Source: Euglena gracilis
Lineage: Eukaryota
DNA: 64,000 nt
Direction: 5' to 3'
Assembly (NCBI GenBank): GCA_039621445.1
Contig: CP154954.1
Location: 29,888,395 to 29,952,394 of the forward strand
Numbering within the stretch: position 1 is the stretch's first letter; each line of letters opens with the position of its first letter. The notes beneath the pieces were generated by a model that saw only the letters and a list, made by a program, of their open reading frames with translations, ran no database searches and was not told where the DNA came from. Made by a program: the position numbers and the translations under genes. Shown piece by piece: positions 71 to 51,200 of the stretch.

Positions 71-1708
71 TGTTCACGTCCAGCGCCGCGGCGGTGATGC
101 CATCCCCCTTCGCGGTGGGCTACGGCACGACGAAGGCGGCGCTCACGGAGTTTGCGACGTCCCTCGCGGTGGAGGGGCGGGCGAAGGGCATCGACGTCTG
201 CGTGTTCCACCCGAGTCCCGTCAACTCCCGCTTCCTGCAGGTGTGGGGGGCCTGGGGGGGGGGGGCTCCCCGAAACCCTGGTGGGGTCCAACCCCCCCCC
301 ACACCACCCTTTCCCGTATTGTTGAGGGTGCCAATTTTTAGGTCAACGTTTTTCTTCGGTGCCAAAGGAAACCTCCTGCAAACTGCCATGGTGGGTAGGT
401 AGACCACCAGGCCTTCCGGTACAGCTCTGCCGGTGGTCTGTGCCGTACGCGCGGACCGGAGGCCTGTTTGATGGTGATGGTAGCGAGCTAAGCAAGGTGG
501 GGAACGGGGATAGTGTTATACCTTTTGACCCTGCTGCTTGAATCCTCCCCCATCCCCCCCTTCTCCTGAGAAAACCAGCTTCCCAACGGGAAAATCAGAG
601 ATATTTCTGGATGGCGCTCACAGTTGGATTTTGTGGCCACTGTGGTGGACTCCGTCCACTCCCCACCAGCAGGGGTGCCGTGCCCTAGGCCCTAAGCAGC
701 AGCTGTCCCGGGGTCGGTCAAAAGGAGCTGAGCAGACTTTCTGGACGGACGGGACATTATGTGGCTCACCCTCTTCGGCGCTCCCAGGGCGGGGGCACCA
801 ACGTGGAGGTCGCCAAGCTCCAGATGTTCGACGCGGCGTACAAGTTGGCCTCCAGCCCGGATGACCTTCCGGACAAAGTGTTTGCGGCCATCGGTGTGCC
901 CTCCATTCATCACCCATGGGTCATCCTCGTGCGTGTGCAATGTGTGATGCGATTTATTTTTGCTTTAACCACATCCTTTTTGTCCGTTTTTGTTTGTTGC
1001 GCTGGTTTCCAAAACAATCATATCACGCCAGCAAAATCACATTTCAGATACAGAACAATCTCAGTCGCTTGAACCGAGGGGACCATGGGGGGTCCAGCCA
1101 GCCCCCAAAAGTCAGTTTTCTCAGCTCTGAGCTGACATTAAGTGACGCCCTGATGGAAAGGCTCAGGTGGCCCCCAGCCTCCCACCTTTCTGGGGGGACC
1201 CCCGAGTCGATACCCGCCCTCTCTCCCCACAGCGGGGCTCCTCCACTTCCCTCCCCCAGGCCGGCCGTGCATTTCGGTGGATTTCGGCGGCGTCGCGGTG
1301 GGCATGCGGTTGATGGTGATGACGCTCGGCGGCAGTCTGCTGAATTTCGGCTTCGCCGTCTGCGCGCCGCTGCCCAGGACGGCCGGGTGACCCCCCCCCC
1401 CCCACGGTGTAGTTTCGGTGGCCAACGGCAGCACCGCGCGGGAGTGGAGCCAGAGAAGCATGGCTCAGGGAGTAGTGTTTCATTGGGTTACACACAGCAC
1501 CGCCAATGCCAAAACGAGACATCTGGCCACGTTGCCAGAGCATTTTTTTTTTGCATTCTACGACTGCTTTTGTCCCCAATCGTCTTGTTCCGAACGGATG
1601 AATTCTTACCAACTTTTTTTTGGGCCGTTTGATGATGCTGCAGCACCGTTGGGTGCTGGGACCAAGGCCTTCCTGCCACGGATGCCTGATTATCGCAAGC
1701 ACAGCTAA
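71..1708 (+). CDS. Short-chain dehydrogenase/reductase, 3' part (exons 71-240, 788-893, 1260-1371, 1681-1708); 5' exons lie outside the window
   Basis: FTSSAAA...YGTTK (catalytic S and YxxxK), then DVCVFHPSPVNSRF. Two GT-AG introns and one stem-loop intron join in frame to ...FAVCAPLMPDYRKHS*. Confidence 0.85.
1372..1680 (+). other. Non-conventional (euglenid-type) intron
   Basis: Starts GCC-CAGGACGGCC and ends GGCCTTCCTG-CCACG. 10-bp stem with one mismatch, CAG at +4..+6, CTG at -8..-6. Removal gives in-frame APL|MPDYRKHS*. Confidence 0.8.
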
Positions 1709-48200: not shown

Positions 48201-51200
48201 ACTCGTGCGTCATCCACCTCGACACGGTGGCGCTGCAGTCGAAGGAGCTCTACGACCGCCTGAAGGGCACCAACGCCGCCCGCCGGGAGACTGCCGCCGG
48301 GGTTGGGGCCGTCGAGCCCCCCCCCTTCCGGACAGCACAGCAGGGTGGGCGTTTTTTTTTATGTTTTGTGACCCGGGGGTGGGTGGGTGCCCGGCTGAGC
48401 CCACCCACAGCGGAAGTCAGGCCGAGTGGGTATGCCACCGGAGGCAGGGTGTGGGTCTTTAAAAAAAAAAACCTCTGGGCGGGTGCAGTGCAGTTGGGGG
48501 GGGGGGCGACCGGACCGGAGCCTGCTGGTCTCTGCGCCAACCCCCTCCAGAGGAGGCCATCGCCCAGAACGTTGCCATCCGCACGGCGTGGGCCCATTTC
48601 CCCTACGCCCAGGCCAACAATATGCCGTACGGCCCCCGCATCAGGACCCTGCGCACCAGGTGGTGGTGCCTCAGGACCCATTGCCGATGCAGCCGGGGGG
48701 GGGGGGGATCCGTGACAGGCGTTTCCATGCCAGGCATCCCCATAGCGGGAAGCAGCAGCGCGGAGACCGAGGAGGAGGAGGGAGGAGGAGGACCCAGGAG
48801 GAGGAGGGAGCCCCGCCACACCCCGTGCCGAGGTGGCGAGAGAGCCCCTGCCGCACCAACCTCCCTCCTCAGTTGCACTAAAACTTCTTGTCTGTTTATG
48901 GCCGGCGCTATCTTCGCTTCTGCCCAGTTTGCTGCGTGGTGAGTGGCCAGGTACCGCTTACACCAGTACTCTTTTTGTTGCTCCGCCTGGCCGGGTGAGC
49001 AACTCTGGTGCAATTCCACCCCCCCCCCTGGGCAAGGACCCCGCAAGGCCCAGCCCTGCCACCCGGCCCGGAGCTGGCCTGCCCCCGTGCTGCACGTGCA
49101 GGCCACGGCGGGCCCCGTGTTGACGAAGCTGCGGGACGTCGGGGCGGCGCTGCTCGGCCACCACGGCATCGGCCAGGCGGTGTCCACCAGCCCCACGAAG
49201 GCCCGCCACATCCTGGCCCGCATCCCGGAGGCGGAGCGCCTCGCCATCCCGCGGGCAGCGCTGGGGGCCCCGCGAAGGGGCCGAAGACCAACACCCTGTT
49301 CCTGGGGGTCGGGATCTCCGGTGCAGTCTGTGTTCGCCTTCGCTTTTCGCTTTTCCTTGTTGGTGCCAGCAGGACATTTGAAACCAGTTTTTTTTGTGTG
49401 TTTCAGAGGGCTGACAATTTGATATCTGTGCAAGCCGTTCACGGACTGGCTTAGTCCGCCTGCATCCTCTGGCCTTCGCCTTGAGCAAGTTGAGGAGCAG
49501 TGTCCAGTTCCCAAGGTTGTGGTCGGGGCCATTCCAGAATCGCAGTGCCACCCCTACACTCCAACCCAGCCGGAGCCCCCACGGCAACGTCCTCCCCGCT
49601 GCAGCGGGTGGTGGTGCTCGCCAACGGGCTTTTTGACCCCCACGCCGCGCGGCCCCTGTCTGCACCCCGACCTCCATCCCATTCCACATCGCGGGGGCTG
49701 CCAACCTCTGTCCCCTCTCCTCCCCACCAAAGTTGACACTGTCGGGCTCGGCGCCGGAATTCACATTTTTGGGAACGTCGACGTGAGGGGGAGTCGTCCT
49801 GCACGACAGCCAGGGGCTGTCGAGCCGTCGTCAACTCCATCCGGCCATCGGGCGACGCGCCCTCCGTCTTCGTTTGCGCCGATGACTGGCTGACAGACGC
49901 GGGCCCCCCACCCATCTCCCCGGCCCGGCAGTGGCTGACGCCACACTCCCATGTGCATGTGTGCACACGCCGGACCGCATGTGCGTGGCACGCGAAGACT
50001 CAAGCGTGTGGACCTGCGTGTTTGCGTTGTCCCAGCCAGTGAATGGATTTGAACGGATGTGCAGCCAGCCGCCGGCGCTTCGCAAGGGTCTTCCCATCCA
50101 CCCGTGAGTCCCACCCAGCTCCAAAGCAGGGAGAATATTTCACATACAGACAGAGGGACCACCCAAGCGCTAAGGTGTGTTGCAATCAGGTTTTCCTGTC
50201 GTAACTTTTTTTGGTGGGGATTGCCTTCTTGATCCGTCAGACCCCCTGGTTCGCTTGCAAGGTCCTTCGGGACTCAATCTGCAGCAGGGATCCAACACCG
50301 ATTCTCCCCCAGCCCAACAGTTCCAGCCTCTCCCGGGCAGGGTGGTCCGCCGGGATGGGAGAGGCCAAAAAAAAACACATTTTGTTGACGTTTTGGGCGA
50401 ATGGGTGACAGTCCAAGGATGCCAGAAATCACTTTTTATCCCGAAGTTGACCCTTTTTTTTTGATTTCCTTAAGGGCCGCCGAAGGCTCCCAGGGTTGGT
50501 ACCGGCCACTTTTGCTGCATGCTTGGCCCGTTTCAAAGTGTGAATGTGGCAGTCTTCGCGCCGTATTTGCGGTTGTTCTCCGTTTTCAAGTGCCCTGTGC
50601 CCCCGGATGGCACGTCGTGAAGCCTCCGCGGCCACCCTGACCGCGCACCTGTTTAGGTGGGGGGGGGCGTCCCCCCCCACCCCCCCCCTCCTGGCCCGCA
50701 GGGGGGGGTCCGGACCACCCCCCCCCACCTGTCCTTATATCGAACCCTGGGCGTGGCCCAACACCAATCCCAATTATGTGCGTGTGTGTGTGTGTGTGTG
50801 TGTGTGTCACATTTGAGAGCTTGTCAGGGGTCCCCAGTACTTGCAACCTGTCAGATGAGGGGGGAAGTGGGTTTTGGTGGGTGGCTGGGGGCAGGGCGGG
50901 TGTGATCTGGGGCCCCTTCGGCCAGTGTCGGGTCGCCCGGCGCTGCAGCAGCTGTGGGCGGTGGGGCGGTGGCGGCCAGGCTTCTTTTTAAGTCAGCAGA
51001 CCCCCCCCCCCCCGGGGGGGGGGGGGGGGGGGGGGTGGGGGGGCCCGGGCCGGACCCCCCCCTGGGGGGGGGGGGTCCCGCGCCGGAGGCGCTGGGTATA
51101 CCTTTTCGGCGCGAAGCGCCGAAATTTTTTGGAAATTGCCTTTAGCGGGCCCGATTTTGGGGGGGGTCCCGCCCCCCCCCCCCCCCGGGGGGGGTCCCGC

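Follow-up and report, generated by a model that had tools for sequence, protein, structure and literature searches.

Introner elements, reportedly described by Huff and colleagues in 2016, are said to be introns derived from DNA transposons. In Micromonas, Aureococcus, and Amoebophrya, such introners are non-autonomous elements with terminal inverted repeats (TIRs) and target-site duplications (TSDs) that become introns, the element being removed together with the duplicated bases and the message restored (Farhat et al. 2021, PMC7789003; PMC11282704; statements from cited papers refer, here and below, to the accessible parts of those papers). The present analysis concerns a possible counterpart of this process in Euglena gracilis, namely the relationship between nonconventional introns and MITEs (miniature inverted-repeat transposable elements) in a 64-kb window of its DNA (the whole stretch of 64,000 nucleotides analysed, contig CP154954.1, numbered from its first letter). 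Introners are mostly spliceosomal and use GT-AG or related sites, whereas removal here would be hairpin-guided and nonconventional. Both the origin and the removal of euglenid nonconventional introns have been open questions since the 1990s, and the suggestion of a MITE origin dates from 2014, although without elements in hand.

The signals of these introns have been described in increasing detail. Milanowski et al. (PMC3935182) reported CA/TG at positions +4,+5/−7,−6; Gao et al. 2024 (PMC11170887) gave an E. gracilis consensus of CCAGG at the 5′ end and CCTG at −9 to −6; and Nomura et al. 2025 (PMC12501133) defined by knock-in a code, 5′-N3CDG-/-CH′GN5-6|R, in which the 5′ spacer is strictly 3 nt and tolerates no change, the 3′ spacer tolerates one additional nucleotide (5–6 nt), and whose signature is found in 61.2% of nonconventional introns. 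A review (PMC11282704) adds a pyrimidine|purine preference at both junctions and reports that these introns leave as full-length circular RNA, after the conventional introns. The rule of a 3-nt and a 5-nt spacer (hereafter 3+5) is therefore already published and is not new here. Closest to a freshly gained example is intron 4 of gapC in E. agilis ACOI 323, a nonconventional intron of recent origin; direct repeats of eight nucleotides mark its junctions, and its authors read these as double-strand-break repair, with no element family named in the accessible text (Milanowski et al. 2016, PMC4770533). Thus the MITE-origin idea (2014), the eight-nucleotide repeat in a young intron (2016, PMC4770533), TSD-like junction repeats (2024 review, PMC11282704), and the 3/5 spacers (2025, PMC12501133) are all in print, while our literature search, which lay outside supplements and subscription journals, returned neither a statement that 3+5 equals an 8-bp TSD nor any description of MITE families in Euglena that end in CAGG and have 8-bp TSDs.

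MITEs, target-site duplications, and the splicing code

The window is euglenid-type nuclear DNA, as judged from its GC-rich genes with introns that have no GT-AG ends, its abundant poly-C/poly-G hairpin repeats, and a reverse-transcriptase open reading frame; about a fifth of its words occur in contig runs that we guessed to be RNA, and a fraction of 0.79 in one DNA run. An initial annotation of this DNA had listed ten nonconventional introns, proposed that the 3+5 geometry of all of them equals the 8-bp TSD length of the resident MITEs, and read the offset as a fossil of that duplication. The part concerning the MITEs is borne out. We scanned the window for inverted repeats (arms at least 9/10 complementary and 40–3000 bp apart, low-complexity arms excluded) and obtained 7646 pairs, 159 of them CAG-started. 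Directly outside the arms, an 8-nt TSD that is perfect or has one mismatch flanks six of these 159 (eight if low-complexity flanks are counted) where about 0.3 would be expected, versus 15 of the 7487 other pairs. This enrichment is confined to CAG-ended pairs and to length 8, as lengths 7 and 9 give one case each and 8-mers displaced outward by 1–5 nt give zero to three. Over the eight elements, the duplication is complete (8/8) in four and 7/8 in the other four, and their flanks match at 60 of 64 positions, versus 21.8 ± 6.2 when flanks are re-paired.

The window thus contains at least eight MITEs, 259–1233 bp long and without coding capacity, all of which start with CAGG and end with CCTG; none is assigned a strand. 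Complete duplications flank the elements at 21623–22044 (TIR CAGGCTTTTGCTTAAGG, TSD TCCAAGAT), 22676–22981 (TIR CAGGGCAGTCCTTAAG, TSD TTATGATT), 34510–35310 (TIR CAGGCACCTA, TSD ATCATAGC; internal 10-nt tandem repeats, very high-copy DNA), and 50977–51265 (TIR CAGGCTTCTTTTTAAG, TSD GTGGCGGC), the last lying in a transcribed stretch. Those with 7/8 duplications are the MITEs at 28638–28896 (termini CAGGGG...CCCCTG) and 36091–36521 (TIR CAGGCTTCT...) and two MITE-like elements at 26482–27714 (termini CAGGG...CCCTG) and 63201–63665 (termini CAGGGCAG...CTGCCCTG, the duplication being of low complexity), which have interior sequence in common. Ends resembling CAGGCTTCTTTTTAAG occur at no fewer than seven positions, including 4044, 36091, 36521, 50977, 51265, 53040, and 53350. 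With their 8-bp arbitrary TSDs, short TIRs comparable with the C/TAGGG type, small size, lack of coding sequence, and presence/absence polymorphism, these elements resemble maize Ds and other non-autonomous members of the hAT superfamily (Du et al. 2011, PMC3260210), and their termini, CAGGG in four and CAGGC in four, compare with C/TAGGGATGAAA in Ac/Ds (PMC3260210). The internal poly-C/poly-G hairpins and the TTAAG subterminal motif of the MITEs, in contrast, do not belong to the features of Ds. The window yielded no transposase, the only long open reading frame scanned being a reverse transcriptase, and the hAT kinship of the MITEs is putative.

Read evidence was obtained for 20 kb (window positions 31700–51699), which include five of the ten claimed introns and three MITEs. 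X1 and X2 are contig runs, taken as RNA by guess, X21 consists of raw RNA reads, and X20 is a DNA run; 15 of the 717 reported joints were seen (702 unseen), each with a junction slide in nucleotides, here termed ambiguity. One of these joints, 50967 to 51265 with an ambiguity of 9, corresponds to an empty form of the MITE at 50977–51265, shorter by 297 nt (289 + 8), and is present in X1, X2, and X21 (seven read starts) and also in X20, at a depth of 40.5, which is that of ordinary single-copy DNA. This is an insertion polymorphism, and it proves both the 8-bp duplication and recent mobility, an empty site having been seen for one of the eight MITEs.

A few further observations concern the MITEs themselves. 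Hairpins inside them (50999–51046, 51169–51195, and many other places) consist of 9–22 consecutive C and then G, or of the opposite order, and it is at these hairpins that raw RNA reads terminate in long stretches of C. The element at 34510–35310 contains (CGACCAGGGC)n repeats, and paralogous copies without the MITE appear as joints with eight different letters between the two sides; depth bins of the DNA run rise to ~598,000 at 34368–35700 and 43700–45040, versus ~40–50 for single-copy sequence. A 16-nt MITE terminus was also sought in metagenome contigs, where it matched at least 117 stretches; the 80 loci listed had one match each and no inverted partner, and we took these matches as chance and left them unused.

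Seven joints in the mapped part, all in one gene on the + strand, occur in X1, X2, and X21 but not in any X20 contig, and we treat these as RNA-verified introns. Four of the five claimed introns with read coverage are among them, with joints within 0–2 nt of ambiguity of the annotated ends and 6–22 read starts in X21; the fifth, 32013–32964, is discussed below. The four are 45938–46504 (CGG/CCG at +4 to +6/−8 to −6, 12-bp stem), 47844–48193 (12 read starts in X21), 48296–48549 (GGG/CCC at the code positions), and 48607–49086 (CAG/CTG; reported as 48606–49085, ambiguity 2). Absent from the initial ten are three further introns at 45384–45855 (joint 45383 to 45856, seven read starts in X21), 47434–47672 (ambiguity 2, placed here at 47435–47673), and 49258–49583 (ambiguity 2, placed here at 49260–49585; the rule holds only at the far end of the permitted slide). 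The exon after 45938–46504 encodes a Walker-A-like GGPAAGKS in translation, and a Pfam search of long open reading frames and exon pieces returned only a reverse transcriptase and a sub-threshold AAA_30 match (E = 0.03).

These introns are members of the described kind and differ from it in nothing essential, having non-GT-AG borders, a terminal hairpin that in most of the seven pairs +4 to +6 with −8 to −6, 3-nt and 5-nt spacers, an exon that starts with a purine, and frequently ambiguous junctions. GT..AG borders are found in none of the seven (three start with GC and none ends with AG in the register used), and the first downstream exon base is a purine in all seven, as it is in all six of the other claimed intervals. 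For each intron, gapless helices were compared on 29 end-to-end diagonals, and the diagonal compatible with 3+5 within the junction ambiguity carried the best helix in six of the seven. At 47844–48193, the sole junction without ambiguity, a 13-bp helix starts exactly 3 nt into the intron and stops 5 nt before its end; at 45384–45855, where the 3+5 diagonal ranks first, three pairs (+4/−6 to +6/−8) are followed by a 2-nt internal loop and a long helix on the same diagonal. RNA duplex folding was also tried as a test of register and rejected as useless for it, owing to spurious GC pairs in the flanks (cognate end pairs of the seven introns −21.3 to −35.0 kcal/mol, non-cognate pairs −21.9 ± 7.0).

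Exon piece lengths suggest two further introns of the same gene. One of them, at approximately 46597–47395, is implied by the 38-nt exon piece 47396–47433 of the P-loop gene together with its reading frame, its joint lying outside those listed; a GT-AG reading disrupts the frame, and if the frame assignment is right, the 5′ cut falls 3 nt before a CCTCCG/CGGAGG stem and the 3′ cut 14 nt after it, which would make this intron an exception to the rule. At 42000–46200 the window and the DNA run differ in many single bases, and contig depth there is ~25 versus ~45–49 nearby, which suggests two diverged haplotypes or copies.

Besides the equality of 3+5 with 8, there is a second, independent match, in that the MITE termini are the core of the splicing code: read as introns on the + strand, seven of the eight MITEs satisfy the whole published code (N3, CAG, CTG, N5, purine). 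We therefore consider the correspondence between the spacer sum and the TSD length to be real and probably meaningful. In the explanation that we propose, a terminal RNA hairpin would draw both junctions together, and, in keeping with the published code, a probably non-spliceosomal machinery would make its 5′ cut 3 nt upstream of this hairpin and its 3′ cut 5 nt downstream of it, ahead of a purine. The MITEs, a group that is still mobile, have CAGG/CCTG ends, the core of this code, and duplicate 8 bp on insertion; because 3+5 = 8, excision of an exonic copy from the RNA would take away one duplication and no more, and the pre-insertion message would be restored. We regard this as the most parsimonious account of the correspondence, and it would make these MITEs the likeliest origin of new nonconventional introns. 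In a newly inserted element, the nine possible cuts within the duplication would all yield one and the same message, so that a machinery with fixed offsets would erase the insertion exactly whenever these add up to 8. The eight-nucleotide repeats of E. agilis gapC intron 4 are what such a fresh insertion predicts. We put the probability that these MITEs give rise to nonconventional introns, with the spacer sum tied to their TSD, at roughly 55%; exonic MITEs would then be spliced, old introns would descend from them, and the stems of old introns may be eroded TIRs. A more sweeping version, which we advance tentatively and would not bet on, is that Euglena has a non-spliceosomal introner system in which the ends and 8-bp duplication of active hAT-like MITEs are matched to hairpin-guided excision, every exonic insertion disappears from the message along with a single duplication copy, most nonconventional introns are aged insertions, and, of nine equivalent cuts, the machinery always uses the one that gives the 3/5 split. 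If MITEs are the source, the 3/5 spacer rule would gain a simple reason in the exact restoration of the message, the frequent ambiguity of junctions would gain a cause, and the idea could be put to a direct test by allele-specific RNA data and by the knock-in assay already available.

Intron flanks, stems, and family similarity

Several observations weigh against a MITE origin, and the first concerns the flanks of the older introns, which the initial annotation had regarded as compatible with decayed TSDs. When the last five exon and first three intron nucleotides are compared with the last five intron and first three exon nucleotides, its count of 30 matches in 80 positions over the ten intervals is reproduced exactly, and its description of this count as modestly above chance agrees with a naive binomial calculation (p = 0.28, P = 0.04); however, the excess vanishes under a re-pairing control, in which flanks of different introns give 29.2 ± 3.0 matches (P(≥30) = 0.45), i.e., the identity is not specific to the pair. 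Shifted registers reach at least 30 in two of 24 cases (33 at −6, 32 at +3). The same holds for 13 introns (seven verified and six other claimed), with 39 of 104 matches versus 38.7 ± 4.0 re-paired (P = 0.51), and for the seven verified introns alone, with 22 of 56 versus 22.2 ± 3.8. In both 8-mers, positions 1–5 are C-rich and position 6 is a purine, position 6 matching in nine of 13; the apparent excess arises from this position-specific composition (C-rich|purine), which is common to both junctions and corresponds to the pyrimidine|purine preference already published (PMC11282704), rather than from pair-specific identity. The 30 of 80 is thus a shared splice-site consensus and no TSD relic, and a tempting but false line of evidence is hereby removed.

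Similarly, we found no continuum from young MITEs to old introns, as introns match at two to four of the eight flank positions and MITEs at seven or eight, with no intermediates. Flank identity shows no correlation with stem strength (rho = −0.04, P = 0.90), and none of the seven verified introns matches a MITE of the window (blastn, E ≤ 1e-3), so that, unlike introners, none is a recognisable copy of a family, within what is a very small sample from 64 kb. Neither the excess identity at the 8-nt register nor the continuum, on both of which the initial annotation had staked its reading, is found in the window, which, for 13 introns from a few genes, is a weak negative. Its 3+5 geometry survives for most introns, although "all" was too strong, since at 47434–47672 a rule-compatible helix is present but the strongest helix lies off the rule and the permitted diagonal ranks fourth of 29. 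Strict CDG/CH′G triplets occupy +4 to +6/−8 to −6 in only three of the seven verified introns, GGG/CCC in two, and wobble or mismatched triplets in two. Because the 3′ spacer tolerates 6 nt, the spacer sum is not rigidly 8. The RNA form that is free of the MITE at 50977–51265 may derive from the empty allele found in the DNA run and not from splicing of the MITE. Finally, the sample is a single 64-kb window, and all verified introns are in one gene.

Alternative explanations

One alternative concerns the identity of the claimed intervals. Several of the six beyond the four RNA-confirmed ones may be inverted-repeat elements bounded by CAG...CTG in non-coding GC-rich DNA, with long open frames arising by chance, and to this we give an even chance. 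CDG and CH′G triplets are present in all six, versus three of the seven verified introns, which indicates selection by motif from a window that offers 159 CAG-started inverted-repeat pairs, and Pfam and homologue searches gave no support. All six lie on the + strand. The claimed intron 32013–32964 has no joint among the 15 of 717 listed, and an X1 contig reads unspliced across 32353–32823; a loose contig end at 32979 continues into sequence from outside the window, and the 30-nt consensus strings of the two loose ends (32979 and 45338) have no match in the window with up to six errors allowed. At 1372–1680, a putative intron with a CAG/CTG stem at 3+5, only 2–11 codons are open downstream on the + strand, and at 7619–7858, with a short CAGG/CCTG stem, only 3–15 are open upstream on that strand. 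Within the putative intron 15419–15819 lie a MITE-type terminus, at 15523, and 35 nt that match the MITE at 36091–36521, and a homologue search with the exon before 15419 returned no match. At 28130–28610 the inverted repeat continues through the proposed cuts into the presumed exons (helix to a = −4, b = −2), and at 28948–30423 the best helix is off the rule and the 5-bp helix on the rule requires a bulge; the presumed exon between these two, 28610–28948, is mostly the MITE 28638–28896. On the other side, four of the five read-covered intervals proved correct, and the sequence after 7858 and around 15419 and 15819 resembles coding sequence.

The main rival to a MITE origin holds that the 3/5 offsets reflect the shape of an enzyme on an RNA helix, with two cuts staggered by 2 nt, as in nucleases that cut across the minor groove, and are independent of transposons, the MITEs either having adapted their ends and spread through mimicry of an existing intron signal or equalling the spacer sum in their TSD by coincidence. 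It would account for the absence of a TSD remnant in old introns, for the strict 3-nt 5′ spacer and the 5–6-nt 3′ spacer of the knock-ins (PMC12501133), which have the look of an enzyme's ruler, and for helices that continue through the cut sites at 7619–7858, 15419–15819, 28130–28610, and 45938–46504; in addition, in organisms that lack introns of this kind, 8-bp TSDs and C/TAGGG termini are commonplace among hAT elements (PMC3260210). Nevertheless, two independent matches would have to coincide, the spacer sum with the TSD length and the terminal triplets with the code, and the literature already contains a newly acquired intron flanked by direct repeats of 8 nt. Mimicking MITEs would, moreover, still be a source of new introns, so that the difference is mainly one of which came first. 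On balance, we regard an enzyme-shape explanation as unlikely, though it is one to be reckoned with. Very improbable, by comparison, is that the direct repeats at young junctions stem from staggered double-strand-break repair with filler DNA, as Milanowski et al. 2016 offered for the gapC intron 4 repeats (PMC4770533), since the 8-bp-flanked elements here are multi-copy families with common termini and the specificity of the duplication length for CAG-ended inverted repeats fits a transposase and not random filler.

Other features of the window

A 1050-aa open reading frame on the − strand (59560–62712) encodes a reverse transcriptase (domain RVT_1, E = 4e-23) and also has a match to a Dam-like adenine methyltransferase that is weak and below threshold (E = 0.0096); retrotransposons with such methyltransferases are reportedly the topic of a 2026 preprint. 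Adjoining this retroelement is a 73-nt inverted repeat (58317–58389/58609–58681) whose arms are 99% complementary and 219 nt apart, with related arms at 57132–57607. Long (TGT/TGC)n arrays at 20017–20167 and 24299–24700 flank a 4-kb interval and are paired, in inverted orientation, with (GCA)n at 24851–24884, and a tandem array with an 8-nt period, more than 36 copies long and mostly 97–99% regular, occupies 13874–14300.

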